Source: Escherichia coli
GTDB lineage: Bacteria; Pseudomonadota; Gammaproteobacteria; Enterobacterales; Enterobacteriaceae
DNA length: 64,000 nucleotides
Assembly (NCBI RefSeq): GCF_011045215.1
Contig: NZ_CP049201.1
Reading direction: 5' to 3' (one strand)
This document shows, piece by piece, positions 4,385 to 62,320 of the stretch (its first letter is position 1; each line of letters begins with the position of its first letter). The position numbers and the translations under genes were made by a program. The notes below the pieces were generated by a model. It had not been told where the DNA came from. It worked only from the letters and a program-made list of their open reading frames with translations, and did not search any database.

Positions 4385-4390
4385 TCTTTT

Positions 4391-4423: not shown

Positions 4424-4475
4424 AACTTCAGGCAGGTTACAATAGTTTCCAGTAAGTATTCTGGAGGCTGCATCC

Positions 4476-10133: not shown

Positions 10134-11297
10134 TTACACATCATTAGTACCTTCCTTATTTTTTGACTGGGACAAATTTGGGACCGATGGGTTCAGGATC
10201 GAGTCTATTTGCCGTGCGTGTTCGGTAAGGTGATTAGGTGCAAGGTGAGCATATCGACGAACCATTTCGATAGACTCCCAGCCTCCCATTTCCTGTAACA
10301 CTGACAACGGGACTCCGGCTTGAACCAGCCAACTTGCCCAGGTGTGTCTCAAGTCGTGAAATCTGAAATCATCAATACCAGCCCGTCTCAGCGCCGCTTT
10401 CCAGGCTGTGTTTGCGTCATACCGCATCTTCCTTACTGTTGGCGCTTTCGTTCCGTCTGGTTTGGTACAGCTTTCCTTGTACACAAATACCCAACGGTGA
10501 TGATTCCCGATTTGTTTTTTCAAAACGCGACATGCAGTATCATTCAGCGCAACGCCAATTGCGCGGTTTGATTTACTCTCTTCCGGGTTTATCCATGCCA
10601 CCCGGCGCTGCATGTCTATTTGTTGCCATTCAAGGTTGATGATGTTCGAGCGTCTTAAGCCTGTTGCCAGTGCAAATTCAACAACAGACTTTAATGGCTC
10701 CGGACATTCATCAATCAGCCTTTGTGCTTCATGGGGCTCCAGCCAGCGGATCCGTTTATTCTTTGGTTGAGGCACTTTAATAATTGGTGCCTTATCCAGC
10801 ATTTTCCATTCACGCTCTGCGGCTCTTAGTAGGGCCTTTATAAATGAAAGATGCGTAGCCTTCGTTGCAACGGACGCTGGTTTTGGCGTGTATTCTGGAA
10901 CAGGTTTCCCTTTTTTTCTGCATGCTTCTGCCCTGAGTCTCCAGTTTTCCTCATGACGCCGGTTCGTCATTTTCTGCATTGCTGAATAAATTTTTGATTC
11001 AGTAATGTCTCTTAGTTGCATTCCTGCGAAATGTTGAAGCCAGAATCCGATCCGGCTTTTGTCATCGTCCAGTGATTTTTTATGTGCTTTCTCTTCAAGC
11101 CACCTGACACACGCTTCCTCGAACGTTATATCAGGTATTTCACCAAGTTTGCTGACCCGCCATGCTTCAGCCTTTAGCTTGTCATGGAGTTCTGTCGCCT
11201 GCCTTTTGTCCTTTGTTCCAAGAGACTGTTTAAATCTTTTACCGTTCGGCAATGTGAAACTGGCGTACCATATTTCACCTCTGCGGAAGAGTGACAT
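10134..11297 (-). CDS. Phage integrase (tyrosine recombinase)
   Basis: C-terminal catalytic motif [10 protein letters not shown]...RRYAHL; adjacent to tRNA. Confidence 0.85.
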
Positions 11298-11527
11298 TTT
11301 CTTTCCTCTGTTATGCCATCACCCGCGCTCACCTGGACAGTATGCAGCGGAGACTGAAGAGCCGCAATGCAGGCTTGTCGTGTTGTGAGGTAAGGAGATT
11401 TATTCTTAGTGGGATCTTTGCGTGTTGCCTGAAGACGCCCTGTGCGTATCCAGTTGGTGGCAGTCGGTCTGGATATCTTGAGAAAATGACAGGCCTCATC
11501 GAGTGTGAGGCTGTATGGCTCCATTAT
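11174..11527 (-). CDS. Putative excisionase (HTH)
   Basis: HTH-like [26 protein letters not shown]; overlaps integrase start as in lambda xis-int; start uncertain. Confidence 0.4.
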
Positions 11528-21696: not shown

Positions 21697-22065
21697 TTGA
21701 TGCGTGATATTCAGATGGTTCTTGAGCGTTGGGGAGCATGGGCGGCGAGTGATAGTTCAGGCGTTGACTATTCACCTATAGCTGCTGGGTTTAAGGGACT
21801 TCTTCCCTATACCAGCAAGAAACGCTTGGCTTGTTCGGATAGTGATGCATTAATTATTGAAGGTTGTCTTGCTCGTCTAAAGCAAAAAAGACCTTATGAG
21901 CATTCGCTTCTTGTGGCACATTATTTATACAGAATATCCAAGCGTAAGATTGCAAAGGCGCGTGGAAAGGATGAGAAATTGATACGTATAGAAATACAGC
22001 TAGCCGAAGGATTTATTGATGGCTGCCTTTCCATGCTAGATCTAACATTAGATTTGGACGTTTAA
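21697..22065 (+). CDS. Putative late-gene antiterminator (Q-like)
   Basis: 122 aa ORF immediately upstream of the lysis region. Confidence 0.45.
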   Translation: MMRDIQMVLERWGAWAASDSSGVDYSPIAAGFKGLLPYTSKKRLACSDSDALIIEGCLARLKQKRPYEHSLLVAHYLYRISKRKIAKARGKDEKLIRIEIQLAEGFIDGCLSMLDLTLDLDV

Positions 22066-22067
22066 TA

Positions 22068-22090
22068 ATACGCCCCATGCAGGGGCGTAT
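22068..22090. terminator. Hairpin between Q-like gene and convergent KAP NTPase gene
   Basis: Perfect 9-bp stem ATACGCCCC-atgca-GGGGCGTAT. Confidence 0.55.
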
Positions 22091-22093
22091 TAT

Positions 22094-23425
22094 TTACTGG
22101 ATGAATGACATTTGATTAATATATTTTATCAATAACTCTCTGGGTGTAGTACTCCAAAAATTTAGGTGTTCATAATCAGTATAAACATTGGTGAATTTTT
22201 TAAGTTCTTCATCACTTTTAGGGGCAAATCGCTCATTAAGAGTAATACTGTCTTTAATTATTCCGAAGAATACAATAGATATTTCAGGAATTTGCGATCT
22301 TCTCTCATAAGAATAAGGTATTTCTTTTATGTTAAGCAGATCTGCTAAATGAGATATAGATTCTGCGGTAATTTCTTGTTTTAGTTTTTCCTTGTCACCA
22401 AAGCAATGTATGAAGACAGCTACGACAAAGATCTTATTTATTAAAGGATCACTGCTTTTGTACTCATCGTCGTTTAATAGTTGAAAAATGTTAAGATTGC
22501 GTGAAAAAGTTTGTGTTTCACGTAAGGATAAGTTGGTTCGTTGAATTAAATCACGGATAAATCTACCAGATAAACTATTAATTTCATTTAATGATTTTGT
22601 CTTGTCTACAAGGTAATTCCAATATATAACAGATGTTTTACATACGACGTGACCATTTATTAAACATGTGTCTGGAAGCGTGATGGTATATTTTATAAAC
22701 TTGTCAAGATACTTTTGTGAGTTAATACTATAACCATAAATATGATTTATCGATGCTTTTAATTGTTCTGTGTTTGTAACTAAAATAAAAAAGACATTAT
22801 TGATGTCAAAAATGTGTTTTATTGTTTCAATGACATTTGTTGAAAAACTCGGCTTACATCGGTCTAATTCATCAATTATAATTACTATCTTTTGACTTTC
22901 TGAAATGCTTTCGATGCAAGATTTAAGTGAATTTATGTTTTTCTCTGATTCCATATGGTCTTCAAGCAAATTTTCAATAGTCCCATCTATTGCTGCATTG
23001 CTTGCTTTCTTCATCGCATCTTGGAATTCTTCGGAAACTTCACTAGCCTCCTGTCGTAAAAACCAACCTGCACCAGCTTTTAGTACCGTTTTTAAACCAA
23101 AGCGAATTGCAGGAAGAGATCTCTTAATGAAGTGTTGTTTTTCTTCCTCAGGTAAAATGCTGGCAATTGCAGAGGTTATGAGAAGTAATGGAGATTCTGC
23201 ATGATCCCCTTTAAAGGCATCAATATAAACAACTTTAGATTCAGTTTCTTGCTCAATAATGAGATTTTTCAGTTTGATACTAAATTCTGTTTTCCCTGTT
23301 CCCCATGCGCCGTCTATTACCAGTGGTGAAATGTCTGCCTCTGGTTTTAGCAACTTGATGATATTTTCAGCGATGTTTCTGCGTTGGAACTCGTCACGTT
23401 CAGTGAAAGATAGTGTATCTAACAT
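22094..23425 (-). CDS. KAP-family P-loop NTPase (candidate phage-exclusion/abortive-infection protein)
   Basis: Walker A GAWGTGKT, Walker B IIIDELDRC; AT-rich; opposite strand in Q-to-lysis moron slot. Confidence 0.75.
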   Translation of the reverse strand: MLDTLSFTERDEFQRRNIAENIIKLLKPEADISPLVIDGAWGTGKTEFSIKLKNLIIEQETESKVVYIDAFKGDHAESPLLLITSAIASILPEEEKQHFIKRSLPAIRFGLKTVLKAGAGWFLRQEASEVSEEFQDAMKKASNAAIDGTIENLLEDHMESEKNINSLKSCIESISESQKIVIIIDELDRCKPSFSTNVIETIKHIFDINNVFFILVTNTEQLKASINHIYGYSINSQKYLDKFIKYTITLPDTCLINGHVVCKTSVIYWNYLVDKTKSLNEINSLSGRFIRDLIQRTNLSLRETQTFSRNLNIFQLLNDDEYKSSDPLINKIFVVAVFIHCFGDKEKLKQEITAESISHLADLLNIKEIPYSYERRSQIPEISIVFFGIIKDSITLNERFAPKSDEELKKFTNVYTDYEHLNFWSTTPRELLIKYINQMSFIQ

Positions 23426-24973: not shown

Positions 24974-25582
24974 AAGAGGCAGATTGATCGTGTTTTCGAA
25001 GTGTTATACCACGCCCGTTCTGTTAATTTGGCAAAATCTGTTCTGATGCAATGAGTATCGAAAGATTTATTGGACTGGTTGCTTTGGTTATCACTGTTAT
25101 CGCTGGAGTTGTTGGCCTAGGGCGTATCCGTGGCACTAGTAAAAGAAGAGGTTAAAACTGCTCTGTTATACACTGAAGTTAACGCAGCGGCTAAGCACTC
25201 AGCAGCAGGACACCGTGTAGAGGCAACGGAAGAGGCCAGAAATATACAGCAGACTATTAACCATATTCCTGGTGACTCTGTTGAGCGCGGTATGCATAAG
25301 AAATACAAACGTACAATTTGAAGTGGTATATTTTTCTTGTTAGTAGATGAATATAATATACCACACAGAATACGATATAATTATTGCTCATGCTTACCTA
25401 AATATGAAAAACAATAAAGTTATAAGTAGACAAGTGTTTTGTTACTTTTAATAATTGATGTGATGTATATATTAAGATTGAAAAATTTAATCATTCTTTC
25501 CACATATAAATTAAGTGGTTCCCTTAGCTTGTCATTTTTGATGATAAGTGAGAGAATATGAACATTATATGATGGAGATAAT

Positions 25583-25894
25583 ATGTCAAACATAAAAATC
25601 AAACAAGCTATTGAAAAGATTGCGGAGTTCAGAGCAGCATCTGCTGCGATGGCTGATGCTCACATGGTTCTTATTACAGAGCTATTGAACTCAATTGAGG
25701 ATATCCGCAAAAACTCTGGTGATAATCTCTCTGAGTTTGAAAAAGGACAGGTTGCTCTCTACATAAAAATTAGCCCAGTTGTGAAAAATGGAATTTCGAG
25801 TATTGAAAAATATAATGAGTCTTTAAGTTCAGACTATGTTGAGGCTATGAACTCCTTATCTAAAATTGCGGGAGGGAATTCAAATGTCGATTGA
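25583..25894 (+). CDS. Hypothetical protein A of AT-rich cassette
   Basis: 103 aa ORF with GGAG RBS. Confidence 0.45.
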   Translation: MSNIKIKQAIEKIAEFRAASAAMADAHMVLITELLNSIEDIRKNSGDNLSEFEKGQVALYIKISPVVKNGISSIEKYNESLSSDYVEAMNSLSKIAGGNSNVD

Positions 25895-26270
25895 AGATGT
25901 TGGAAGCATCCTTGATAGATTAAAAGTAGCCAGGATCGAAAATAAAAAAATTGAAGAGTCAGCTGGAAAAGCAGAGGAAAATGCTGTTAACTCTAAGCAT
26001 ACTGATGGTAAAACACGAAGCGCCTTAACTATTACGTTTCTCTGGTTCTTTTTTTGCCTTCTTATTTTTAGCTGTCTTTTTGTTCTTTGGTATAATAATT
26101 CTGTTGTGAATTGGGCTTTAGAGTTAAAGAGCAAAGGTGTTGATGATTACGTTCAATATTTAAAGCCACTCGAGCTGGAAAAGGTATTGTCAATAATGAT
26201 TACTGCCCTTGGTACTTCATTAGGATTTATAATTGGGTATTATTTTAAGGATAAAGAAAATCATTCTTAA
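25884..26270 (+). CDS. Hypothetical membrane protein B of AT-rich cassette
   Basis: Hydrophobic segment ITFLWFFFCLLIFSCLFVLWY; start overlaps stop of A. Confidence 0.45.
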   Translation: MSIEDVGSILDRLKVARIENKKIEESAGKAEENAVNSKHTDGKTRSALTITFLWFFFCLLIFSCLFVLWYNNSVVNWALELKSKGVDDYVQYLKPLELEKVLSIMITALGTSLGFIIGYYFKDKENHS

Positions 26271-47993: not shown

Positions 47994-48570
47994 CTTTATC
48001 AATGACTTATCTCCCGACTTCCCGTCTTGCTTTTCCTAAACAGAACAATCGTAGAATATTCTTGAAGGGTTAGATCGTCACTGTTTTCTGTTCGATACTG
48101 TGACATTCAGCACTTGATTCGCTATGGATCTGACAGGAAGGTTTTGAGCGAAAATCTGCAGTTATTCAGTCGTTTTCTTATCGGTCACCATTATTCTTTT
48201 AGACATTGATCCTACAAAGCTGCCGCAAAGTTGGTGGTGGGAACTGAAGTTGCGTAGAGAAGGGGTCAATACCCGGAGGCAAACATGGGCTGGCAAAAGT
48301 GTAGCGGTATTAGGCGCAGCTATTTAGCCTAGTTATGTTTTATGAAAACTTGATATCATATAAGTGTCTTACTTATTGGCTGTAAATAAGTTTTTCTAAG
48401 GAATTGTTTCTTGAGTATCATTTGTAACTGTAACGGAATTTATAATCCTTTGCTTTATTGTTACGGTATTTTTATCACACCCTATTTTTAGTGGTTTTTA
48501 TACTGAAGTTTGGCAAAGTGAACTTTATATACATATACTTCATCCTGTTTCAGTTAAATTGGGTGGATGA

Positions 48571-49315
48571 TATGGCAACTACATGTTCAGTTATATTGAT
48601 TTTGGAGTCCTTTGATGTTTATTTCGGAAAAGAGAGTGTGTTTCTGGAGAGAGGTTCATCTGTACTTGTCGACTCTAGCTCTAGAGATTTTTTCCTGACA
48701 TATCCTGAAAGAGTGATAGTGGCGGATTTTGGCGCTGAGTTTATTAGTCGCTATTTGAAAGCTAATAACTTAAGGGATATTTCTGATTGTAGGGAATATC
48801 CATCTTATTTAAAAATAAACTTTGCTGACTTCAGTTTAATTAAAGGATTAATTAGTTGGGCTAATCACTGTGCTGAATACATAGAAATTTTTGATGAGTC
48901 TATTGCTTTTACATGTCTCTCTGCATTTTCTTCTGAAAAACAATTTGGAGTATTTCTGTTTGGATGTTTGAAAAGCACAGGGGCTAAAGTTAAAACGATT
49001 ATTCATACGGATTTATCTGCACCATGGCGTCTTAAGGATATATCATCAAGATTATATCTCAGCGAAAGTTTACTAAAGAGGAAATTGAAAGAAGAGGGGG
49101 TATCATTCAGTAAGATCATACTTGATGAGAGGATGCAAATGGCTGAATATTTACTCAGCACTCGTTGTTATCCTATTAGTAAAGTAGCTAAGGTCTGTGG
49201 TTATGCCAGTGTCTCATACTTTACTTATGTATTTAGACGTTATTTTGGTGTTTCTCCAAGTCAATACTCTCAGAGGAGTTCAGAAAGTAAAATTCTTACT
49301 CACCAGGGAATCTGA
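48571..49315 (+). CDS. AraC/XylS-family transcriptional regulator (Rns/AggR/AppY-like)
   Basis: C-terminal dual-HTH pattern WRLKDISSRLYLSESLLKRKLK...ILDERM...YFGVSP; AT-rich; start uncertain. Confidence 0.65.
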
Positions 49316-50069: not shown

Positions 50070-50118
50070 ATTCGTAATGCGAAGGTCGTAGGTTCGACTC
50101 CTATTATCGGCACCATTT
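50070..50118. repeat. attR of prophage / attL of downstream element: second copy of 49-bp tRNA-Thr 3-prime segment
   Basis: Exact repeat of 10074-10122. Confidence 0.75.
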
Positions 50119-50280
50119 CAACGTCTTTTCCCGTCTATTAAAATCCAAAAAACCCGCATATACTCTAGCTTTGAGCGCCCCCGATAGTGTTTTAACGTCT
50201 ATCAATATCTCCTAAAATCCACGTCTTTTGGGGGTATATTCGGGGGTATATGCTGTGTGGGCTACTGGAGATACCCCCAA

Positions 50281-51471
50281 ATGAAACTAAATGCCCGTCA
50301 GGTCGATACGGCCAAACCGAAAGAAAAACCCTATAAACTGGCCGATGGTGGTGGGCTTTATCTGCTTGTTAATCCCAATGGTTCCCGGTACTGGCGTTTA
50401 AAGTACCGGGTAGCCGGAAAAGAAAAGCTGTTGGCGCTGGGGGTATATCCCGATGTAACCCTGGCTGATGCCAGGGCGAAACGAGATGAGGCCAAAAGGG
50501 GTATGGCTGGGGGGATCGACCCGAACGAAGCGAAGCGGGAAGAAAAATTGAACCGCGAAGCGCAAATCAAAAACACCTTCGAAGAAATCGCCAGAGAGTG
50601 GCATACAGAACGGCAGAAGAAATGGTCTGAGGGGTACGCCTCGGACATTCTGGAAGCATTCAGTAAAGACATATTCCCTTGGATTGGAAAACGCCCCATC
50701 ACGGAAATAAAGCCCCTTGATTTGCTGAATACGCTTAAACGCATCGAGAATAGGGGAGCGACTGAAAAGGCCCGTAAGGTTCGCCAGTGGTGCGGGGAGG
50801 TCTGGAAGTATGCGATCGTTACCGCCCGCGCAGAATATAACCCCGCCCCTGATCTATCTGTGGCTATGGAAGGACACGAAGGGGAGCACTTCCCCCATCT
50901 GGAAGCCGAAGAGTTACCCGAATTTTTCCAGACGCTGGCGACGGCAAAAAGTAACGTTCAGGTTATTTTGGGGCTGCGTCTGCTTATTCTTGTGGGGTTA
51001 CGTCCGGTTGAATTACGCGCGGCCCCGTGGTCAGAGATTGATTTTGATAATGCCTTGTGGGAGATCCCCAAAGAGCGAATGAAGAAAAGACGTCCGCACG
51101 TTGTCCCGCTTTCTCGCCAGGCTATGGTTATTCTCGGGCAATTAAAAGAGTTGTCGGGCCGCAATCCTTTCATTTTTCCGGGCCGGAACGACCCGCGAAA
51201 GCCAATGAGTGAAGGAGCAATTAATCAGCTAATAAAGCGACTCGGGTATAAGGGCAAAGCTTGCGGGCATGGTTTCCGACATACCATGAGCACAATTTTG
51301 TATGAGAAAGGGTATAACACCGAATGGATCGAAACCCAGCTTGCACATGTTGATAAAAATACCATCCGTGGCACATATAATCATGCCCGCTATCTGGATG
51401 GACGCCGGGAAATGCTTCAATGGTATGCCGACTATATGGAATCGCTGGCGAGTGGCAGGGTAAAAGATTAG
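50281..51471 (+). CDS. P4-type integrase (tyrosine recombinase)
   Basis: N-terminal MKLNARQVDTAKPKEKPYKLADGGGLYL typical of P4-family integrases; catalytic HGFRHT... Confidence 0.85.
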   Translation: MKLNARQVDTAKPKEKPYKLADGGGLYLLVNPNGSRYWRLKYRVAGKEKLLALGVYPDVTLADARAKRDEAKRGMAGGIDPNEAKREEKLNREAQIKNTFEEIAREWHTERQKKWSEGYASDILEAFSKDIFPWIGKRPITEIKPLDLLNTLKRIENRGATEKARKVRQWCGEVWKYAIVTARAEYNPAPDLSVAMEGHEGEHFPHLEAEELPEFFQTLATAKSNVQVILGLRLLILVGLRPVELRAAPWSEIDFDNALWEIPKERMKKRRPHVVPLSRQAMVILGQLKELSGRNPFIFPGRNDPRKPMSEGAINQLIKRLGYKGKACGHGFRHTMSTILYEKGYNTEWIETQLAHVDKNTIRGTYNHARYLDGRREMLQWYADYMESLASGRVKD

Positions 51472-52020
51472 AGAAGGTCTAAGACGGGAATACCGCTAAA
51501 TTAGATGTTAGGCGTGGACACTCAGCATCCACGCTTAAACTTTTTATTATCATTTTCAATGAATTATGATTTTGGAAATTTTATAAAAAACACCAAGATT
51601 ACTAATCTATTGATTAATATGAAATATTTCTTTTTTTGATTATTAATTGTGCTCTTGATTGTTGTTTTTATGGTGTTAATTTATAAAAATCTTATTTATA
51701 GGAATTAACATTATATAGTTGGCACTTTTTGCTAAAATCTGTTTTTATTGTGTTTTATTTTTATTTCATTTTTGTTGTTGTTTGTTTGATTTTTAGTGTC
51801 TTTATATCTGGCTAATTGATTTCACTCAAACCATAAATCCTTTCAGAGGCTTCTAGAGTCTTCCTGAGGCTTAAATTGACTTAACTAAAAGTCAAGCCCC
51901 ACATCCCACATACATCTTTTTGACATGCACTTATGGCGTGAATAACAATGACTTCATCCAATCTACAGGCATCCTATAAAGTCAATGTCTGTATATAGAA
52001 AGATATTACATAACGTTTGA

Positions 52021-52260
52021 ATGTTAATAGCGGGTGTGAATATGAGAAATGATGCAATGCAGCTTTTAAACCAGGGAAAAAGATTGATCCGCCTGCCTGA
52101 AGTTATGATGCTTACGGGGCGGTGTCGCGCCAGTATTTATAAAGATATCAATGCAAATGTCTTTCCAAAGCCGATTAAAACCGGCCCGCGTTCTGTCGCA
52201 TGGGTTGAGGGTGAGATCAGCGACTGGATCGACAACAAAATCAAAGAGCGCAAAGTGTAA
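52021..52260 (+). CDS. AlpA-family transcriptional regulator
   Basis: RLIRLPEVMMLTGRCRASIYKDI...FPKPIK.GPRSVAWVEGEISDWI; start may be 52057. Confidence 0.7.
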   Translation: MLIAGVNMRNDAMQLLNQGKRLIRLPEVMMLTGRCRASIYKDINANVFPKPIKTGPRSVAWVEGEISDWIDNKIKERKV

Positions 52261-52459
52261 ATCTGATTTTATTCAGAGATGAATATGATTTATTTGAATG
52301 CTAAGGATTTTGTGTATTCTTTTTGTTGTAAATACTCGTAGCATGGGGAGTTGGCAGTATTTATTCAGTATTAGGTTAAGTAGTGATAAAATACCAGGTA
52401 ATGCCGGTTTATGCAGTGTTTAATATATTTGTTGCTGGCGAAAATTTACGGAAAATTAA

Positions 52460-53332
52460 ATGAACATTACTGATATTATCAGCCATCGCGTATATCGTGA
52501 TGCGGATCTTGCTGTCATTAATAACACGGCATTTATTCAGCCTTATGACGGTTGTCACCGTGGGTTGTATGAAATGCGCGTTATTGAACTTTATCGCCTG
52601 AATAAAATGATGCACCTTACCCACGAATATAAATCTATTTCCGGGGAAAGCGTAGGCATTCCGGCGACTAAAGAGGAACTGTTTACACTGGTTAATAAAG
52701 GGCATGAACTTTGCCAGTCTGAACGGGAAAAGCTGGCGGCACTTGAAGCAGAATTGCAGCGTCTGCCAAGCCCGGCTGTAATTCCTGCGCCGCAGACGAT
52801 TAAAGAAGCACAGCAGGCCCGTAAATCACTAGAAGATGAAAGATACAGACTGCATCACGCAGCAATTAAAAATCAAGTCAAAGCACAGCAGGAAGAGTTA
52901 TCCATCAGACAAAACATTCTGGAATTGCTCGCGCCGGTTATTGATGTGTTGTTGGCCGTGGAAGATGTGGAACTGCTCGATCTGCGCCGTTCCCTGCCTA
53001 AGTCATCCCTCGATGCTAAGGCATTCAAAAAGGCGATTTCTGAAATTGAGTGTGCTGACCTTGCCTGGCAGAAAATGGATAAACTGGAGATTGCCCTTAA
53101 CAAGGTGGTGAACAACTGCACATATCGCCCGGAAGGAAGCATTAATCCCCGTTTTGTTAACCCTCTTAATGAAGATAAGCGGGAACGCGCCGAAATATCA
53201 CGCGATTATTACAGCTCTGAAATGGCCTTTATTCATACGGTGATGAGTGCAGATGAATATTTAAATTATATGTTGCCGATCCGTCACCAGCAGCGCGCGC
53301 AACGACTCACATTAGAAAGAAATATCAACTAA
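52460..53332 (+). CDS. Coiled-coil protein (possible scaffold or capsid-size factor)
   Basis: 290 aa with long predicted helical/coiled-coil central region; immediately upstream of capsid-like gene. Confidence 0.4.
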   Translation: MNITDIISHRVYRDADLAVINNTAFIQPYDGCHRGLYEMRVIELYRLNKMMHLTHEYKSISGESVGIPATKEELFTLVNKGHELCQSEREKLAALEAELQRLPSPAVIPAPQTIKEAQQARKSLEDERYRLHHAAIKNQVKAQQEELSIRQNILELLAPVIDVLLAVEDVELLDLRRSLPKSSLDAKAFKKAISEIECADLAWQKMDKLEIALNKVVNNCTYRPEGSINPRFVNPLNEDKRERAEISRDYYSSEMAFIHTVMSADEYLNYMLPIRHQQRAQRLTLERNIN

Positions 53333-53341
53333 GGAAGAATT

Positions 53342-54349
53342 ATGTCTTATGTAACACCAGATTATTTAACGCAGTATCACGAAAACCTGATTAAGTCTTT
53401 TAATATTAAATATAAAAACGAAGATACGGGGTATTTCACCATATCACAGCCGGAAAAAGCATCTCCGGATGCATGGGGATGTTCCACGCTTGATGTTAAA
53501 GGCTCGTCCTGGCTGATTGATAATATTTCATTACTGGACATTATCGGTGCGGATGGCACGACGATCACCATCGGTGATGGTTCCCTTTATACAGGCCGTG
53601 CAAAGGAAGGTCGCTTTCATAAGAAACTAAAAACCAACGGAACACCTTTTTTATTATCAGAAACGGATTCCTGCGCCTCATTGACTTATGAAGAAATGGC
53701 GGTAATGGCAAACGCGAAAAATTTCAGTAATGAAATGATCATTTTTTTCAAGAAGGCCGTGGTGCGGGATATGCTCCGTATTGGATTTAACGGCAAGATG
53801 ATTGCCGAAAATACCAACCCGGAACAATATAAAAACGGCGAAGATATCAATATTGGCTGGCACTCGCTGGCAAAAACATTCAATAACGGTTCACAAATTA
53901 TTTCTGATGCTTTCGCACTGGGGAAAGGCGGTGATTTTGCCGATGTTCACGATCTGGCTGATTGCCTCATCACGTCAAAAATCCCCGAAGGTCAGCGCGA
54001 AGATCCGGGCCTTGTGGTGATGGTTGGCGCGCAACTTGCCGCCCGCGAACGACTGAAACTGTTCAACATGGCCGATCAACCACTGACGCTGACGGCGGGG
54101 GATATGCTGACAAGCAGTGTCGCCGGTCGCTTTGCTTTTATCCCGCCGTTTATGCCGGGTAAGCGCCTGGCTGTTACGACGCTGAAAAATTTGCAGATCC
54201 TGACGCTGAAACACAGCCAACGCTACCGCGCGGAGGATATCCCGCAACGAGGTGTTTATGAGCATGGCTATTTACGTGAGGAAGGTTACGCGCTGGGGGA
54301 TGGCTATCTTTACGCGGCCAGCGATGAGAACGCCGTAACGCTGGTTTAA
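53342..54349 (+). CDS. P2 gpN-family major capsid-like protein
   Basis: Motifs GFNG, GKGGDFA and EDPGLVVMVGAQLAA resemble recalled P2 gpN; needs search confirmation. Confidence 0.5.
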   Translation: MSYVTPDYLTQYHENLIKSFNIKYKNEDTGYFTISQPEKASPDAWGCSTLDVKGSSWLIDNISLLDIIGADGTTITIGDGSLYTGRAKEGRFHKKLKTNGTPFLLSETDSCASLTYEEMAVMANAKNFSNEMIIFFKKAVVRDMLRIGFNGKMIAENTNPEQYKNGEDINIGWHSLAKTFNNGSQIISDAFALGKGGDFADVHDLADCLITSKIPEGQREDPGLVVMVGAQLAARERLKLFNMADQPLTLTAGDMLTSSVAGRFAFIPPFMPGKRLAVTTLKNLQILTLKHSQRYRAEDIPQRGVYEHGYLREEGYALGDGYLYAASDENAVTLV

Positions 54350-54561
54350 GTATCGAGTACAGCCAGCTTTGACAGTGATGGCCAGATAAAAGAAAACCCT
54401 CTCACCGGAACGAACAAGAAACGATAAGAGGGTTTATCAGGAAGATGATTCTACGTGATGAATTATACCGAGAAACAACCGATGCTTACCAGCAAAAACG
54501 CGTCACTGTTTGTGCAGCTGGCACCGTCCGATCTGACGGTGTTTTCCGGAATGGTAAGGAG

Positions 54562-54753
54562 CTATTCCTTTGCCTTTTTGCGCTGTTCTGCTTTCAGCTT
54601 GCGCCCGCAGGCATCCAGCACCCAAGCGGAAAAACTTGAACCCGGATTATCGACTTTTTCGCGTTCTACGCAGGCATCAATTTCTGCGATCATTTCATGC
54701 GGGAAGCGTATTCCCTTGTATGTTGTTTTGCTGTTTATGTGGTTTTTAGTCAT
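54562..54753 (-). CDS. Putative ribbon-helix-helix repressor
   Basis: 64 aa; start placed at MTKNH; divergent from operator array. Confidence 0.45.
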   Translation of the reverse strand: MTKNHINSKTTYKGIRFPHEMIAEIDACVEREKVDNPGSSFSAWVLDACGRKLKAEQRKKAKE

Positions 54754-54769
54754 GCTGGAAACTCTTAAG

Positions 54770-54870
54770 TGTTTAAACATCAGTAAAGATACAGTAAAGC
54801 CGGACATAACAAAACTGTTTAAACAAAATCTGTTGACTTGTTTAAACACTCAGCATAATGTGTTTAAACA
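54770..54870. promoter_or_regulatory. Operator array: four copies of palindrome TGTTTAAACA overlapping a rightward promoter
   Basis: Copies at 54770, 54816, 54839, 54861; TTGACT at 54834. Confidence 0.55.
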
Positions 54871-54960
54871 GTTTGCTACGTTGCAAACTGAAAAAACGAA
54901 GCCCGGCAGTGTTGACGCACTAACCGGGCCTCTGACCAACACGTTATTAGGAGTAACGCT

Positions 54961-55164
54961 ATGGCTAGCCATCAGTGTAACCAAACTCGCCCTAAAAATC
55001 GCCTATTTCTCTTTCTCGCGGTATCACGGGCCGACATGCAGGACAAACCACACCGCGAACAAATCACCGCGTACAGCGAACAGGAAGCCCGTTCCATGCT
55101 GGCCGGTCGCTTTATCCTCTGCTTTGCTGGCCGTCTGCCGGTTCAGGAGGTGCACCATGTTTAA
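54961..55164 (+). CDS. Hypothetical small protein
   Basis: 67 aa ORF with AGGAG RBS. Confidence 0.4.
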   Translation: MASHQCNQTRPKNRLFLFLAVSRADMQDKPHREQITAYSEQEARSMLAGRFILCFAGRLPVQEVHHV

Positions 55165-55405
55165 CCCACTGGACAACCGCAAAGCGGCGGCGCTTAACCC
55201 GTTCCACGATGACTGTTACGATCCGCCAGCCTTTATTAAACCGGGTTCAAAAGTAGTGGTTGAAATTGATTCCCGGGAAATGGAGGTCGCTATTCTAGCC
55301 GCTTATGACTACGGACTGGACGCGCTGAACGACGATGGCCGGGAAGAGCTTAACCGCTTAATTGCTGACCTGAAAGACAAGATAACGGAGGCGCGGTATG
55401 CATAA
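55157..55405 (+). CDS. Hypothetical small protein
   Basis: 82 aa with CAGGAGG RBS; C-terminal part of a longer ORF-track entry. Confidence 0.4.
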   Translation: MFNPLDNRKAAALNPFHDDCYDPPAFIKPGSKVVVEIDSREMEVAILAAYDYGLDALNDDGREELNRLIADLKDKITEARYA

Positions 55406-55823
55406 TCTGCTTAATTCACCGTTGCCAGTGTCTATGGATCTCTTTCAGGCTGGCGAGATGTGCGGGCATTTTGTCGCGCGGTTAACGGATGAAAGTTGTG
55501 TTGACGAGACTGAACGCGTCGCACTTTGCGGACGTCTGGCTTTTGCCCTGCGTTCTCTTTCATCTCTTTGTGATACAGACTATCCATCGCATATCCAGGC
55601 GCAATTAACCGCGACTGCTATTCCTGCTCCCTGCGTACCTGATGAGTGGATCGACGCGACGATCATGACGGGCTATTGCACCGCCTTAAATGATGCGCTG
55701 CTTAGTCGCTCCCTTCGTATGGACGTTGAAACACAATTACGCTGGCTTTTGCATGACATGATTAATTTACTTGTCAGATATCTGAAACAGCCTTGTATTA
55801 AGGCGGGAGTAGATCATGTCTGA
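55398..55823 (+). CDS. Hypothetical protein
   Basis: 141 aa ORF in operon string. Confidence 0.4.
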   Translation: MHNLLNSPLPVSMDLFQAGEMCGHFVARLTDESCVDETERVALCGRLAFALRSLSSLCDTDYPSHIQAQLTATAIPAPCVPDEWIDATIMTGYCTALNDALLSRSLRMDVETQLRWLLHDMINLLVRYLKQPCIKAGVDHV

Positions 55824-56214
55824 AATTATGCTCACACCGTTTCACGTTGACCGCCATTTTTACGATCTGGTTTACGGTGCTTCATTTTTTGCGGATGCAT
55901 TACCTGCAATGAATGATATCAAGCAGCAGCGGCTTTATTGTCGATTATTGCAATTAAATCTGGTTGTTTTATTTGAAAAACGGTCGCGGGATATTCCCCC
56001 AATTCAGTCGAGTAAAATAAAAATCGCTGATGAGGTTATATTTCTTAATGTCGATAATATTTATCATGCGCTTTCCCTGACTGCCGGGCTGATAAGTCAG
56101 GATATCAGTAAGGGGATGGAAAAAGAACTGGCTGAATATATCAGGGATATTATTAGTATTATTTTTAATGAAATGCGAATGCAGATGGTTGATTATGATC
56201 CATATGAAATGTGA
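55816..56214 (+). CDS. Hypothetical protein
   Basis: 132 aa ORF in operon string. Confidence 0.4.
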   Translation: MSEIMLTPFHVDRHFYDLVYGASFFADALPAMNDIKQQRLYCRLLQLNLVVLFEKRSRDIPPIQSSKIKIADEVIFLNVDNIYHALSLTAGLISQDISKGMEKELAEYIRDIISIIFNEMRMQMVDYDPYEM

Positions 56215-56310
56215 GACGAATAAAACAATAATCGATTTATAAGAACTGAAAAATATTTAATTATAACCGTATTTTAACGGGGGATAATTACGCCCCTGTA
56301 AGGAAAATAT

Positions 56311-56580
56311 ATGTCTGATTTGAATACCATTGCTGTTAATAGTGCTGAAAAATATCTTAGCCTTGAGTGCTTCCATAAACTCAACCGCGCAAGGAATGTT
56401 TCATTCCAGATGCATTTACAGATCCGTCAGTGTGAGATAAACGGCCTGCCACTTTTATGGATTCCAGATATTTTCAGCTATATCAGCGAAGACATATCCG
56501 CCGTTCTGGAAGAAGCCAAAGTACTTGGCCTTTGCGATAAGTTCACAGGCGAAGCCCGGATCGGTCAGGTCAGTCTTTAA
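56311..56580 (+). CDS. Hypothetical protein
   Basis: 89 aa ORF upstream of primase. Confidence 0.35.
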   Translation: MSDLNTIAVNSAEKYLSLECFHKLNRARNVSFQMHLQIRQCEINGLPLLWIPDIFSYISEDISAVLEEAKVLGLCDKFTGEARIGQVSL

Positions 56581-56613
56581 TTTTTTGTATTCCGCGCCGC
56601 CCGCTGCGGCGCA

Positions 56614-59376
56614 TTGTCTTACCCATTAATAAAGGTCATACCGATGCAAGGTAAAAAAGTTTCACAGACAGCAGGACGCGCGGCGGGCCAGTGGGAAAAT
56701 ATTCTTGAACACCTGGGGATTACTGTTCCTGCGGGTGGTCTTCATGGCCCCTGCCCGATCTGCGGCGGTAAAGATCGTTTTCGCTTTGATAATAAAAAAG
56801 GGCGTGGAACCTGGTTCTGCAACCAGTGCGGCCACGGTGACGGGCTGGATCTGGTCAAACTGGCGCTTTCGCTGGACACCGGGCCAGCCGCTGATCGAGT
56901 TGCTGAATTACTTCCGGCCCTTCCTCCGCCTGCGGTCATGCAGCCTGCCAGAAAAGAAGCCAGTGACGAAGGTCGCCCACATGACTACTGGCAACGCCTC
57001 TTTGCCCGTACTCAGCCGGGGGAAAGCCCTTACCTTACGGCGCGGGGGCTGACAGGTTTTGAACTGCCGCTGACCGTTCAGGAGATGAAAACCGCTGGCG
57101 GTGTTTTTCCGGCTGGTTCGCTTTTATTACCGATCACGGACACCGAAGGACGGATGACCGGTGCACAGCTTATCGGCCCGGACAAGGTAAAAGGCTTATG
57201 TGCTGGCACCAGGAAAAAAGGGCGTTTTATCTCTGTCGGGCCGTTCCCGGAGAAAATGCCCGCGCGGATCATTATCTCGGAAGGCTTTGCCACTGCGTTA
57301 AGCGCATCCCTGCTTTCAGAGGGCTGGAGTATTGCGGCGCTGGATAAAGGCAACCTGAAAGACGTTGCGGAGCAAATCCGCCAGAAATGGCCGGACGTGC
57401 AGATCGTTATTGCCGGTGATAATGACTTTTCTGACGGTAAACCCAATCAGGGGAAAGAGTCTGCGATCAAAGCTGCACTGGCCGTTAAGGGATGGATGAC
57501 CATTCCTCCCGGACGGATCAAAGTTGACTGGGATGATTACCGCCGTGAATTTGGCCTCCAGCGCGCCCGTGACGCATTCGCGGAAGAACTGCTTAACCCG
57601 GCAGACACCGAAACGCGTTTACCGCATGGTTTCCGCCTGACGAAGGATTATCTTTGGTTTGATCGCCCGCTCAGTGACGGTAGCGAAAGCGGCCAGACTC
57701 GCCAGGTGAAGATATGTAGCCCGCTCAAAGTGACGGCCATCACCAGCGACGGCGAAGGCGGTAAATTCGGGCGTCTGCTTGAGTGGGAAGACTCCAGCGG
57801 ATTACGGCATGAATGGGCGATGCCAATGACAGTGCTTGCCGGAAGCGGTCAGGAGCTGCGGGAGGTTCTGCTTGATAACGGAATGCACTTTATCAGCGTG
57901 AACGGCGCGGCGCGTAGCTATCTGATGGAATACATTTCTAACTGTCGCCCGGTTCGCCGCGTCACCTGCGTTGAAAAAACAGGCTGGTTTAGCGGTGCGT
58001 ATGTTCTCCAGGATGAGGTGATCGGCAGCGATGCCGGATCGGTCATCCTCCAGTCTGCTATGTCGTCTAAAAATGACTTCCGGGTGAGCGGAACGGTGGC
58101 GGAATGGGCGCAACACGTCGGGCGCTATTGTGCCGGAAATTCCCGCCTGGTGTTCTGCGTCAGTCTGGCGCTGGCCGCGCCGTTACTGAATATTATTGGT
58201 GTTGGCGGCGGCGGTTATCACCTTAAGGGCGAATCCACGGACGGCAAGACAACCACAATGAAGGTAGCGGCGTCTGTCTGCGGCGGGCCTGATTTCTGGA
58301 AAACGTGGCGGGCAACCGGAAACGCGCTGGAAGGTATTGCGCTACGCCGTAATGATGCCGCCCTGATGCTGGATGAAATCAGCGAAGTTGACGGCAGAGA
58401 GGCTAGCCGGATCGCCTATATGCTGGGGAACGGGCAGGGCAAAGCAAGGGGGCGCGTTGATGGCAGCGTCCGCGATCCGGTGACCTGGACATTGCTTTAC
58501 CTGTCCACCGGGGAAATCTCTATTGCGGAACATGCCGCCGAAGCCGGAGAAAAGCGAACCGGCGCGGGTGTCGGTGTGCGTATGGTGCAAATCCCCAGCG
58601 ATACCGGAAAACATGGCGCTTTCGAAAATCTCCACGGCATGGAAGGCGGTAAAGCGTTTGCGGAATACCTTGAACAGACCTGTAAACAATATTACGGCGC
58701 GCCGTTCCGCGAATGGTTGCGCTGGCTGGCGGCAAATCTGACGGAAACCGCGAACCGGGCGCGGGCAATGAAAAAAGAGTATGAACGGACATTATTACCC
58801 GAAGATTCCGGCAAGCAGGTTGGGCGCATTGTGGATCGCTTTGCACTGTTGGCCGTTGCGGGGGAACTGGCGAGTGAAGCGGGGATCACAGGCTGGCAAC
58901 CAGGAGAAGCGTATAACGCTGCAAGAAGCTGTCTGGCGGCATGGCTTAACGATCGTGGACATGCGGCCAACCAGGAAGAAGCCGACGCGCTGGAGAAGGT
59001 GCGGCGCTTTATTACGGCCAATCAGTACACACGCTTTGCTGACTGGTATGACGAGAAAAACCGCCCGTCAAATATGGTTGGCTTTCGCCGGGTGGAGAAA
59101 GGCGGGAACGGTATTGGCATGAGCAAAAAGGAGAACAGCGGCGATACTGTTAAAGACGGGGACGCCACTAAAGAGCCGGAAACCACATTTTATATCCTGC
59201 CCAGCGGATGGAAGGAAATTTGCGGGACGTCGGACAGCGTTAAAACGGCGAGACTATGCGACGAGGCTGGATGGCTTGTAAAGGATGAAGATCGCCAGCG
59301 CCTACAACGTACAGTAAGACTACCGGAAATTGGCTTAAAGAAAGTGTATGTGTTCAGCGGCGAAGTGATCGGATAA
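56614..59376 (+). CDS. P4 alpha-like primase-helicase
   Basis: Zinc-binding CPICGG...CNQCGHGDG, TOPRIM-like IISEGFATA...AGDND, P-loop GESTDGKTT. Confidence 0.8.
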   Translation: MSYPLIKVIPMQGKKVSQTAGRAAGQWENILEHLGITVPAGGLHGPCPICGGKDRFRFDNKKGRGTWFCNQCGHGDGLDLVKLALSLDTGPAADRVAELLPALPPPAVMQPARKEASDEGRPHDYWQRLFARTQPGESPYLTARGLTGFELPLTVQEMKTAGGVFPAGSLLLPITDTEGRMTGAQLIGPDKVKGLCAGTRKKGRFISVGPFPEKMPARIIISEGFATALSASLLSEGWSIAALDKGNLKDVAEQIRQKWPDVQIVIAGDNDFSDGKPNQGKESAIKAALAVKGWMTIPPGRIKVDWDDYRREFGLQRARDAFAEELLNPADTETRLPHGFRLTKDYLWFDRPLSDGSESGQTRQVKICSPLKVTAITSDGEGGKFGRLLEWEDSSGLRHEWAMPMTVLAGSGQELREVLLDNGMHFISVNGAARSYLMEYISNCRPVRRVTCVEKTGWFSGAYVLQDEVIGSDAGSVILQSAMSSKNDFRVSGTVAEWAQHVGRYCAGNSRLVFCVSLALAAPLLNIIGVGGGGYHLKGESTDGKTTTMKVAASVCGGPDFWKTWRATGNALEGIALRRNDAALMLDEISEVDGREASRIAYMLGNGQGKARGRVDGSVRDPVTWTLLYLSTGEISIAEHAAEAGEKRTGAGVGVRMVQIPSDTGKHGAFENLHGMEGGKAFAEYLEQTCKQYYGAPFREWLRWLAANLTETANRARAMKKEYERTLLPEDSGKQVGRIVDRFALLAVAGELASEAGITGWQPGEAYNAARSCLAAWLNDRGHAANQEEADALEKVRRFITANQYTRFADWYDEKNRPSNMVGFRRVEKGGNGIGMSKKENSGDTVKDGDATKEPETTFYILPSGWKEICGTSDSVKTARLCDEAGWLVKDEDRQRLQRTVRLPEIGLKKVYVFSGEVIG

Positions 59377-59469
59377 GACCTGCTGACACCGCTATAACTA
59401 ACGGTGTTGGCCAGCTTCCGGCCCTGGAAACATAGCCAGCCAGGAAGAAGTGATCGCACGTATCATATT

Positions 59470-59690
59470 TTTTAGTGGAAACAGTGGGAACATAGGGAAC
59501 AGACTTGATTTATAAAGGTTTTATTTGTTCCCAATTACTGTTCCCATATGGTAACAGGTGGTAATGTATTTTAAATCATATGGTTATGTTGATATGCAAA
59601 GCGTTGTTCCCAGTTGTAAAAGAGAGATGGGAACAGGAAAAAGGTATAAATATCAACACTGTTACCATTGTTCCCACTGTTTCCACCATT
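59470..59690. repeat. Iteron cluster (TGTTCCCA / TGGGAACA), crr/ori-like
   Basis: At least 9 copies in both orientations directly downstream of primase. Confidence 0.6.
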
Positions 59691-59724
59691 TTTGACAATA
59701 ACAATATTTAATTTCGGGGAAAAT

Positions 59725-59741
59725 GCTTTTCCCTGGCTGGC
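59725..59741. repeat. 17-bp direct repeat GCTTTTCCCTGGCTGGC (copy 1)
   Basis: Perfect match to 62005-62021. Confidence 0.6.
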
Positions 59742-59760
59742 TAACATCAAAGGTAAAGAA

Positions 59761-60726
59761 ATGAGCATTAAGAAACGTCCTGATGGAAAATGGCTGGTAG
59801 ATATGCGGCCCGCAGGTCGTAAAGGAAAACGTATTCGCAGGGTTTTTAACAGGAAATCGGAGGCCCTGGCATTTGAGATGTATTACCTGGTCCGTTCTCA
59901 ATCGCCGGAATGGGCAACGAACTTCACAGACCGCAGATTATTAAGCGATTTGCGTAAAACATGGTGGGACCTGTTTGGACACGCCAGAAATAACGCAGAA
60001 ACTGAAAAGCGCCAGCTTGATAAAACCATCCGGCAGATGGGAGATCCACCAGTTAACCGGCTTACAATCCGCTTCATTCTGGAATTCAGAGCAGGCCGTG
60101 TTTCAGGGAAATTAAAGGCATCCACGATAAATCGCGATATGTACCGGTTATCAGGCATGTTTACCGAATTAATTAAAGCAGGTGAGTGTAAAAATAATCC
60201 GTTCCGTAGTCTTGAACCGTTAAAGGAAGAACCTTCCGCAGTAACGTTTCTGACCCACGAAGAAATTAGCATGTTACTGGAAAAACTGGAGGGAGATTCG
60301 CGTAAGCTGGCGTTACTGTGTCTTAATACTGGGGCGCGTTTCAGTGAAGCCGCGAATCTAACGGCTGAAATGGTTAACAACCGTCGTGTAACGTTTATTA
60401 AGACAAAGAACGGGAAGCAGCGGACAATACCCATTTCATCTGAACTCGAAAAGGAAATAAAAACAAAAAATTCAGGTCAACTTTTCACGGTGGATTATAA
60501 ATGGTTTTCCCGCAGGTTGAAGGCAATCAAACCGGATTTACCGGATGGACAGGCAACGCATGTATTACGACATACTTTCGCCAGTCATTTCATTATGAAT
60601 GGGGGAAATATTGTTGTATTAAAAGAGATTCTTGGACATGCCAATATTCAGCAAACTATGATTTATGCACACTTTGCGCCTGAATTTCTGGCGCAGGCTG
60701 TAACATTGAATCCATTTAGTAAGTAA
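59761..60726 (+). CDS. Tyrosine integrase (second integrase of the region)
   Basis: N-terminal MSIKKRPDGKWLVD arm-binding-like region; C-terminal HVLRHTFASH... Confidence 0.8.
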   Translation: MSIKKRPDGKWLVDMRPAGRKGKRIRRVFNRKSEALAFEMYYLVRSQSPEWATNFTDRRLLSDLRKTWWDLFGHARNNAETEKRQLDKTIRQMGDPPVNRLTIRFILEFRAGRVSGKLKASTINRDMYRLSGMFTELIKAGECKNNPFRSLEPLKEEPSAVTFLTHEEISMLLEKLEGDSRKLALLCLNTGARFSEAANLTAEMVNNRRVTFIKTKNGKQRTIPISSELEKEIKTKNSGQLFTVDYKWFSRRLKAIKPDLPDGQATHVLRHTFASHFIMNGGNIVVLKEILGHANIQQTMIYAHFAPEFLAQAVTLNPFSK

Positions 60727-60754
60727 CTGCGGATTTTCTTTTGAATGTACAAAA

Positions 60755-61012
60755 CTAACGTTGAAGTAATTCTTTCATGACCGTTTTTTGTTCCGGCGTC
60801 ATCATGTCAATCATTGTTTTTACTGCTTTATCCCCAGTCAGAGCGCTGGGGCTTAGCGTATGGGAGAACGTCATATTCATAACGAAGGTATGCCCACATT
60901 CAACATTATTACAGGCACAATACATATCAGACAGGTGGGGATGCTTGCGCACTGTCTTTTTTGTTGTTGAATTACTTCCACACTCAGGACAAACAATTTT
61001 ATGGCTGCGCAT
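60755..61012 (-). CDS. Ogr/Delta-family zinc-finger late-gene activator-like protein
   Basis: CPEC...CACNNVEC zinc-finger spacing resembling P2 Ogr; start uncertain. Confidence 0.5.
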   Translation of the reverse strand: MRSHKIVCPECGSNSTTKKTVRKHPHLSDMYCACNNVECGHTFVMNMTFSHTLSPSALTGDKAVKTMIDMMTPEQKTVMKELLQR

Positions 61013-61432
61013 AATAATCACCACTCGTAAAAGGCGCATTATTATACCACTATTTGCATTAAACAAAAAAAAGAAATTGATATAAATTATCAATAATATC
61101 ATCGTGTTATGTCATTCCATTCTTTCTTTGCTTTTAACTTAGTGTCACGCAATTTGATTTTTTTTGTTTTAATTTTCATATGGTTACGTTATTTTGATTA
61201 AAGATTGAATTTTACGATGACTGTAATTATTGAAATCCTTTTCAACTGATTGCATTTTTTTCAGTCTCAAATTTCATGTAAAACCCCGTTTAACGCCTGT
61301 TCTGGCGCTTCTTTCCTGCAATTTTCCAAACTGAAAAAATTCTCACTACGTAAACACCGTGGGCGTGCGGGTGAGCGCGGTTTTGGTCCCGCTGGCGTTT
61401 GCGTCGTAACAAGTCAGAAACATACAACCACA

Positions 61433-61450
61433 TGTACAACTAGCTGTACA
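61433..61450. promoter_or_regulatory. Putative TA operator: two TGTACA palindromes
   Basis: TGTACAactagcTGTACA upstream of yefM-like start. Confidence 0.5.
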
Positions 61451-61495
61451 TATGCAATACTTACGACGTAATAACTTGGCGGACGGAAAAACACT

Positions 61496-61741
61496 ATGCA
61501 ACACGTAAACTATACCGATGCTCGACAGCATTTAGCTGACCTGATGCAGCAGGCTAATGATGATCGTGCGCCAATCCTGGTTACGCGTAAGGGTGCTAAA
61601 AGCGTAGTAATGATCGATGCGGAAGAGTTCGCATCGATTCAGGAAACGTTACACCTGTTCAGTAACCCGGCGAACGCCGCACACATTGAAGCCAGCCTTG
61701 CATCGCTCGAACGCGGCGATTATGAGGAACTGGACATTTAA
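61496..61741 (+). CDS. YefM/Phd-family antitoxin
   Basis: 81 aa; ATGA overlap with toxin gene. Confidence 0.7.
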   Translation: MQHVNYTDARQHLADLMQQANDDRAPILVTRKGAKSVVMIDAEEFASIQETLHLFSNPANAAHIEASLASLERGDYEELDI

Positions 61742-62001
61742 TGAAAGTCAGGATATCCCCGCAGGCAAAAGGCGATCTTCAGTACTGGGCTGAGAATGAC
61801 CCAAAGACGTATAACAAGGTAATGGAGCTAATCAAATCGGCTAAGGAAAGCCCCTTCAAGGGGATAGGGAAGCCGGAGGCGCTAAAGCATCGTAAGCCGC
61901 TTTGGTCACGTCGAATCACGAAAGAACATCGCCTGGTGTATTACGTTGAGCAAGGCGATCTGTACATTGTTGCGTGTCGCTATCACTACACCACGATTTA
62001 A
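61741..62001 (+). CDS. YoeB/Txe-family toxin (mRNA interferase)
   Basis: KGKPE.LKH...WSRRIT.EHRLVY...ACRYHY motif. Confidence 0.75.
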   Translation: MKVRISPQAKGDLQYWAENDPKTYNKVMELIKSAKESPFKGIGKPEALKHRKPLWSRRITKEHRLVYYVEQGDLYIVACRYHYTTI

Positions 62002-62004
62002 ACA

Positions 62005-62021
62005 GCTTTTCCCTGGCTGGC
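62005..62021. repeat. 17-bp direct repeat GCTTTTCCCTGGCTGGC (copy 2)
   Basis: Perfect match to 59725-59741. Confidence 0.6.
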
Positions 62022-62320
62022 GGGTTTACCTTAACTTTGCCAGCACTGTTTAAACGCCCGCCGCTCTCTCCCAAATACAGTATAAAAAGCAATCAATTAT
62101 TGTGGACGTAAAAGCGCATGGGGGTACAATTGGGGGTACGTTGGTTATCCATTATGTAATAAATTCATAATAAACATGGTGTTATATTGCATGTTTAACT
62201 CTTATTATCTACCCCATATTCAAATACACCACGTTTCCTCCTGTGCCGTATTTATGCCATTGTAACCCTGGCAATTAATCAAAATACTGTTCTGACATCA
62301 GGCAATGCAGGTGCAGACAT

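Follow-up and report, generated by a model that had tools for sequence, protein, structure and literature searches.

A dyad iteron cluster 3′ of a primase-helicase gene as the probable SaPI/PICI-type replication origin of a P4-like satellite in Escherichia coli

Introduction

In SaPIs, replication is initiated by the Rep helicase itself, which recognises iterons by means of a C-terminal winged helix; the origin, which is located immediately 3′ of rep, contains six to twelve iterons around an AT-rich centre, and the two or more iterons on one side are oriented opposite to those on the other (PMC9371898). In SaPI5, Rep is fused to a primase (PMC9371898). The same origin layout has been reported for the PICIs of E. 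coli and other Gram-negative bacteria; four variants of Pri-Rep are known in E. coli PICIs, and a pri-rep-ori clone of EcCICFT073 drives plasmid replication (PMC6092414). In P4, according to its GenBank annotation (the source of the P4 facts used here), replication needs two sites separated by about 4.7 kb, crr (4291-4590) and ori (9086-9809), which carry the same octamer, and crr, which consists of two 120-bp direct repeats, adjoins the alpha gene on its 3′ side.

Here, we have analysed a window of 64 kb from E. coli, in which a dense cluster of iterons follows a gene for a primase-helicase. Based on its anatomy, on the modelled structure of the encoded protein and on analogy with the systems mentioned above, this cluster is probably the single replication origin of a P4-like satellite of approximately 12 kb, of the SaPI/PICI type and read by the adjacent initiator.

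The satellite and its surroundings

The window covers the proA-thrW region of E. coli, with tRNA-Thr at 10044-10119. An exact 25-nt copy of the 3′ end of this tRNA at 50091-50115 divides a prophage of about 40 kb (approximately 10.1-50.1 kb) from the ~12-kb satellite (approximately 50091-62216), both of which occupy the tRNA-Thr site in tandem. The right boundary of the satellite was placed from arm-type repeats near 62119 together with a degenerate core close to 62200. Arm repeats of the TGGGGGTA type were observed at both satellite ends (50229-50248 and 62119-62138).

The satellite begins with genes for an integrase, an alpA/vis-like regulator, a 290-aa protein of unknown function and a homologue of the P2-family major capsid protein, continues with an icd/cI-like gene, two genes of unknown function and genes for an epsilon-like derepression protein and the primase-helicase, and ends with the iteron block, a gene for an Xer-like tyrosine recombinase (59761-60726), ogr/delta on the minus strand and phd/yoeB. 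The element resembles P4 in being a satellite that carries epsilon and delta/ogr genes, whereas its epsilon-like, ogr/delta, icd/cI-like and P2-type capsid genes are not the usual set of a PICI. When positions 56000-61000 were used as a megablast query, matches were found in only three of 5426 complete E. coli genomes and none in the phage and plasmid collections, so that no annotated origin could serve as a guide. This allele of the primase-helicase and origin is rare in E. coli.

The primase-helicase initiator

The gene upstream of the cluster and the part of it that encodes the C-terminal domain of the protein are as follows.

56644..59376, plus strand: primase-helicase initiator of 910 aa, 'alpha-like' and of the PriRep type, assigned by Pfam and homology
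58684..59373, plus strand: C-terminal domain of the initiator (aa 681-910), assigned by an AF2 model and Foldseek

Pfam domains in the protein include Zn_Ribbon_Prim (aa 34-68), Toprim_3 (aa 209-304) and the DUF927 helicase (aa 330-611). A Walker-A GKT motif is located at aa 534-536. Homologues of the protein are named 'DUF927 domain-containing protein' in RefSeq. In BLASTP, the alignment with P4 alpha was limited to residues 1-322 (37% identity), which comprise the homologous Zn-ribbon/Toprim primase. The helicase of P4 alpha is of the D5/SF3 type, whereas the helicase part of the window protein matched 5DGK (SCCmec Cch, E 1e-13) and 8TCH (SaPI Rep, E 1e-12) in phmmer searches, as well as the NCBIfam Cch model at a score under the model cutoff.

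An AlphaFold (AF2) model of the C-terminal domain, built with 37 homologues in the alignment, reached a pLDDT of 87. The best Foldseek matches in the PDB were the C-terminal regions of 8TCH (SaPIbov1 Rep) and 5DGK (Cch), with E values of 3e-5 to 3e-4 over approximately 215-230 columns, and the terminal ~65 residues also matched the wHTH protein TcpK bound to oriT DNA (5VFX). These last ~65 residues are thus predicted to form a winged helix, the putative reader of the iterons. When the sequence profile of the C-terminal domain was compared with PDB sequences, a colinear but only weakly suggestive match to 8TCH (E 0.17) was obtained. Homology of this domain to the DNA-binding domain of P4 alpha was also considered and rejected: 1KA8 was absent from the fold matches, and hhalign of the C-terminal profile with the C-terminus of P4 alpha gave a probability of 0.04%. 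Comparison of homologues revealed that the most variable stretch of the initiator is its last ~100 residues, within the C-terminal domain.

Since only its N-terminus is P4-like and its helicase and C-terminal domain resemble those of SaPI Rep and Cch, the protein is a chimera, in which, judging from the sequence comparisons and the model, a P4-type primase is fused to a helicase and C-terminal domain of the SaPI-Rep/Cch type. Its designation as an alpha-like primase in the first-pass annotation is appropriate for aa 1-322 but not for the DUF927 helicase and the C-terminal domain; beyond the primase domain, P4 alpha, including its C-terminal 1KA8 domain, is unrelated to the window protein. SCCmec Cch has a helicase of the DUF927 type and a similar C-terminal region, but it lacks a fused primase and its host element is of a different kind. 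Homology of the helicase and C-terminal domain to 8TCH and 5DGK, as well as a primase fusion as in some SaPIs, is shared with the SaPI/PICI systems, from which the window protein differs in that its primase module is of the P4-alpha type.

Anatomy of the iteron cluster

The octamer TGTTCCCA/TGGGAACA has seven exact matches in the 64-kb window when both strands are considered. Six of them are located in the cluster (59485, 59526, 59539, 59605, 59628 and 59669) and the seventh in proB (7819), outside the satellite. If one mismatch is allowed, 12 copies are found in 59425-59685, 11 of which lie inside 59470-59690; the main block (59476-59685) comprises the six exact iterons and five with one mismatch, present on both strands, and alignment with related loci revealed an additional decayed iteron at 59559-59566. 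The densest 261-bp stretch elsewhere in the window contains two such matches, and the background of 0.14 per 261 bp corresponds to a Poisson P of ~1e-19 for 12 copies. As the primase-helicase gene ends at 59376, the first iteron of the main block is situated 100 bp 3′ of it. No second cluster was detected in the element or in the 64-kb window with one mismatch allowed. The earlier description of at least nine octamer copies in both orientations within about 220 bp, directly 3′ of the primase gene and with no counterpart elsewhere in the element, therefore holds, and the count over the entire window indicates that the cluster is unique there.

The features of the cluster, from left to right, are listed below.

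59425..59432, plus strand: outlying iteron TGGAAACA with one mismatch, 51 bp left of the main block
59433..59450, unstranded: left arm of an outer inverted repeat, TAGCCAGCCAGGAAGAAG, 18 nt, 89% complementary to 59726-59743
59476..59501, plus strand: left outer iteron triplet TGGAAACA, TGGGAACA and AGGGAACA, at 9-bp spacing
59526..59566, mixed strands: left inner iterons, on the minus strand at 59526 and 59539, on the plus strand at 59549 (TGGTAACA), and the decayed copy at 59559-59566
59557..59604, unstranded: central spacer between the palindrome arms, 48 nt, 69% AT
59605..59635, mixed strands: right inner iterons, on the minus strand at 59605 and on the plus strand at 59628
59660..59685, minus strand: right outer iteron triplet at 9-bp spacing, mirroring the left triplet
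59726..59743, unstranded: right arm of the outer inverted repeat, overlapping a 22-nt direct repeat (59720-59741)

A repeat search identified the cluster as an imperfect palindrome, whose arms of 82 nt (59475-59556 and 59605-59686) are 71% complementary and carry oppositely oriented sets of iterons on the two sides of the AT-rich centre, the core of which (59564-59598) is 77% AT. As read from the sequence, the two outermost iterons of the left triplet and those of the right one constitute a perfect inverted repeat of 18 nt (GTGGAAACAGTGGGAACA at 59475-59492 and its reverse complement at 59669-59686). The outer inverted repeat (59433-59450 and 59726-59743) encloses the entire iteron block. In three related loci from the survey described below, L005, L007 (a MAG of Enterobacteriaceae) and L030 (Klebsiella spallanzanii), its left arm is partly kept at the same position, and all three slots of the left outer triplet are kept as well. 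Long direct repeats of the kind seen in P4 crr (2 x 120 bp) were not found in the cluster region by the repeat search.

An IHF-like element, AATCATATGGTTA, was noticed in the AT-rich centre at 59574-59586; it is one mismatch away from WATCAANNNNTTR, to which the aligned position in L007 and L030 is an exact match. We rejected it as evidence, as the pattern is too common (83 matches versus ~63 expected).

Conservation of the cluster in homologous loci

Among the candidates scored, 875 homologues of the initiator were obtained at E<=1e-10. A scan with one genome per species yielded 80 loci with initiator homologues (32-75% identity), 75 of which could be evaluated. A cluster was defined as at least 6 copies of a 7-mer, on both strands, within one 300-bp stretch and no more than 1.6 kb past the stop codon. 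Such a cluster, with 6-14 copies, is present 3′ of the gene in 60 of the 75 loci, which range from Enterobacterales and Aeromonas to Desulfovibrio, Zoogloeaceae and Acidobacteria. It usually begins 20-110 bp past the stop codon and is 180-230 bp long, and the 7-mer of each locus is nearly missing from the flanks of +-6 kb. In the control regions, which were several times longer, other repeats with at least six copies per 300 bp were found in 11/75 (upstream) and 6/75 (far downstream) loci. A clear cluster was not found in the remaining 15 of the 75 loci, most of which are distant relatives (32-43% identity). A single cluster is the rule in approximately 55-60 related loci, with no partner site.

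In about 20 loci, a homologue of ogr/delta starts 280-310 bp past the initiator stop codon, directly behind the cluster, and a regulatory side-role of the repeats is thus possible. It might even be supposed that the repeats are an operator array with no role in replication, through which the genes 3′ of them would be controlled, namely the Xer-like recombinase gene in the window and ogr/delta in most relatives, and initiators do often autoregulate via their iterons. We consider this highly unlikely. The gene 3′ of the cluster varies (ogr, recombinase and others), whereas the linkage between cluster and initiator is constant; a scan for promoters and terminators in 59250-59850 did not exceed what was expected from shuffled sequence, and no convincing plus-strand promoter was seen; and 11 sites in two mirrored sets with an AT-rich core have the layout of an origin. 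The iterons could still have an additional regulatory role at such an origin.

Iteron types and co-variation with the initiator

More than 12 iteron types occur across the 60 loci, including GGTAACA, GGGAACA, GTGTAACA, GTGGAACA, GGCTACA, AGGTAACC, TGGTACA, GGTTACA, GCGTAACA, ACACGTAAG and GGAGCCA. When the origins are aligned, the iteron slots are fixed and the base changes are concerted over all slots: GGGAACA is used in the window, L007 and L030, and GGTAACA at every slot in L005. Even very similar initiators may differ in their iterons. The proteins of L022 and L027 are 97.6% identical and are associated with GTGTAACA and GGGTAACA, respectively, i.e., a one-base change at all ~11 iterons alongside as few as 22 amino-acid changes in the initiator, four of them C-terminal, and those of L028 and L026 (96.4% identical) are associated with GTGTAACA and TGGTAACA.

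In three of four such near-identical pairs with different iterons, more substitutions than expected fall in the last ~55 residues (P 0.005-0.04); the fourth pair has no enrichment there. Among close relatives, identity of the winged helix separated pairs with the same iterons from pairs with different iterons with an AUC of 0.66, compared with 0.54 for the rest of the protein. These sequence comparisons suggest that the iteron type is only modestly linked to the winged helix. Comparison of initiators by iteron type allowed no single specificity residue to be assigned; the alternation of 'QR' (window) and 'QK' (L005) before the final beta-strands was examined as a candidate and discarded, since L007 has QK together with GGGAACA.

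In addition, six Aeromonas loci (L040, L043-L045, L052 and L053) encode proteins with ~41% identity and share the same GGGAACA core in 12-13 copies, whereas closer relatives, 75% identical to the window protein, use GGTAACA. The iteron type is thus not simply tracking the relatedness of the proteins, and a shared core at ~41% identity implies that the recognition code is not simple.

A more drastic change was observed in E. coli Eco_24-2013 (L003), which shares the backbone of the satellite (capsid protein 97.6%, epsilon 79% and downstream recombinase 98.8%). Between epsilon and the recombinase it has an unrelated Toprim/P-loop protein, followed at the same intergenic site by a dyad cluster of GGTTACA/TGTAACC. 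With an unrelated protein and different iterons on the same backbone, the initiator and its iterons have been swapped together as one cassette. Iterons that co-vary with their own initiator are a feature by which an origin of the SaPI/PICI type is recognised.

Comparison with L003 also bears on the tyrosine recombinase (59761-60726), whose gene starts 76 bp past the last iteron. P4 has a comparable order of alpha, crr, attP and int, and the repeats might in principle be arm-type or core sites for this enzyme. This reading is extremely improbable. A recombinase homologue is located just 3′ of the initiator in 5 loci only, in comparison with clusters in ~60; L003 combines a nearly identical recombinase with different iterons, whereas L001 and L004 have the same iterons and a shorter, divergent recombinase (50% identity over 160 aa). 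Furthermore, in L007 (8718-10110) and L030 (8667-10100) the recombinase gene lies between the primase-helicase gene and the GGGAACA origin, i.e., on the side of the cluster opposite to that in the window. These comparative data led us to reject arm-type sites for the recombinase encoded 3′ of the cluster.

Comparison with P4 crr and with SaPI/PICI origins

The first-pass annotation had regarded the cluster as the analogue of P4 crr with a different octamer, which would make it an auxiliary cis region bound by the initiator, with a separate and unrecognised origin elsewhere in the element. It had correctly placed crr next to alpha, as the GenBank annotation indicates, and the position of the window cluster directly 3′ of a primase-helicase gene with a P4-like N-terminal primase domain is a true likeness. 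The octamers do differ: TGTTCCCA agrees with the P4 type I octamer TGTTCACC at 6/8 positions, with TGTTC-C in common. A multi-site layout that recalls ori and crr was also observed in one distant relative, L070 (a Proteobacteria MAG), which has, besides the copies near the gene, two further GGGGACA clusters at ~10940-11480, 3.0-3.6 kb past the helicase stop codon.

An auxiliary role of this kind is nevertheless very unlikely. P4 has two sites with the same octamer, whereas neither the element nor the window contains a second cluster, and about 55 related loci are single-cluster as well; an 82-nt imperfect inverted repeat with an AT-rich centre takes the place of the two 120-bp direct repeats; and the protein is not P4-like in its helicase and DNA-binding parts. 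Because there is no partner ori, there are no 120-bp direct repeats and the helicase and C-terminal domain are of a non-P4 kind, the equation with crr is not supported. What stands of the earlier claim is that, by analogy, the cluster very probably acts in cis in replication and is recognised by the primase-helicase encoded next to it; it is most likely the origin itself and not an auxiliary region.

The better analogue of the cluster is the SaPI/PICI origin, as in SaPI1, SaPIbov1, SaPI5 and EcCICFT073, where the initiator is a self-loading helicase. In both cases, the site is located directly 3′ of the initiator gene, and sets of iterons flank an AT-rich centre in opposed orientation. The features by which such origins are recognised were found in the window, namely the position, the mirrored arms with an AT-rich centre and a Rep-type helicase with a predicted winged helix. 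One difference from SaPIs is the iteron itself, which is an 8-9-mer at 9-bp spacing in the window and a 5-6-mer in SaPIs.

Proposed mechanism of initiation

Binding of the initiator, melting of the DNA and origin activity of the cluster may be proposed from the likeness to SaPI and PICI origins. The product of the adjacent gene would be an initiator that loads itself, with a P4-type primase joined to a DUF927 helicase of the SaPI-Rep/Cch type and a winged helix at the C-terminus. Upon induction of the satellite, the winged helices would bind the GG(G/T/A)AACA iterons, which are opposed on the two arms, and helicase rings would assemble there head to head. The AT-rich centre (~59557-59604) is the presumed melting site, at which the built-in primase could then start bidirectional synthesis.

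Significance

Origins of this kind are already known, and the cluster in the window opens no new category. Its identification would nevertheless place the origin of a widespread, uncharacterised satellite replicon, represented by the 875 homologues among the scored candidates and the 60 loci with the same layout, and would imply that a replication module of the SaPI/PICI type can serve an element whose genes are of the P4 type. A simple annotation rule may be derived for such islands, in which an iteron cluster just 3′ of a gene for a DUF927 primase-helicase would be taken as the origin. In addition, the natural pairs of initiator and iterons, some of which are one base and a handful of residues apart, may be useful for understanding how winged helices read DNA and how the specificity of replicons diverges.

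A broader and more tentative idea, which we regard as possible but do not favour, is that the DUF927 primase-helicase and its dyad origin form a self-contained, exchangeable and quickly re-programmable replicon cassette that occurs across several phyla and has replaced ori/crr in P4-like satellites. A P4-like satellite lineage would then have swapped the two-site ori/crr system for a single-site system of the SaPI kind. If so, near-identical satellites, such as those in the window and L003, would trade whole cassettes, and these swaps would perhaps avoid cross-talk or incompatibility between co-resident satellites.

Other features of the satellite and the prophage

The capsid region of the satellite (52460-54349) encodes a P2-family major capsid homologue of 335 aa, which matches TIGR01551 below the cutoff, and the 290-aa protein encoded 5′ of it has no family match. 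Homologues of P4 Sid (capsid-size protein) or Psu were not found in the annotations or by family searches. A capsid gene is located 4-5.5 kb upstream of the primase-helicase stop codon in 24 loci from many enterobacterial genera, including L005, L010-L017, L021-L022, L026-L028, L031, L033, L037, L041, L047 and L059.

Between a YlcI/YnfO-like small gene (minus strand) and the icd/cI-like gene (plus strand), the 10-bp palindrome TGTTTAAACA occurs four times within 54770-54870 (at 54770, 54816, 54839 and 54861), which looks like an operator array in a divergent control region of the satellite.

The 22-nt direct repeat (AAA..GCTTTTCCCTGGCTGGC) that overlaps the right arm of the outer inverted repeat is present at 59720-59741 and 62000-62021, with an imperfect inverted copy at 59433-59450. 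The two direct copies flank a 2.28-kb segment containing the Xer-like recombinase, the inverted ogr/delta and phd/yoeB. Both copies are found in L001 and L004 and only the right one in L003, whose similarity to the window, beyond its other origin cassette, starts 15 bp past the left repeat. Such repeats may represent the scar of a past recombination or, alternatively, sites belonging to a nested module.

Finally, islands of low GC content were observed in or at the edge of the prophage at 22001-23000 (31%), 25001-26000 (36%) and 48001-49000 (36%). One of them contains a 443-aa ORF (22094-23425, minus strand) and another an AraC/YdeO-like regulator (48458-49315), and these islands may represent cargo or defence genes.
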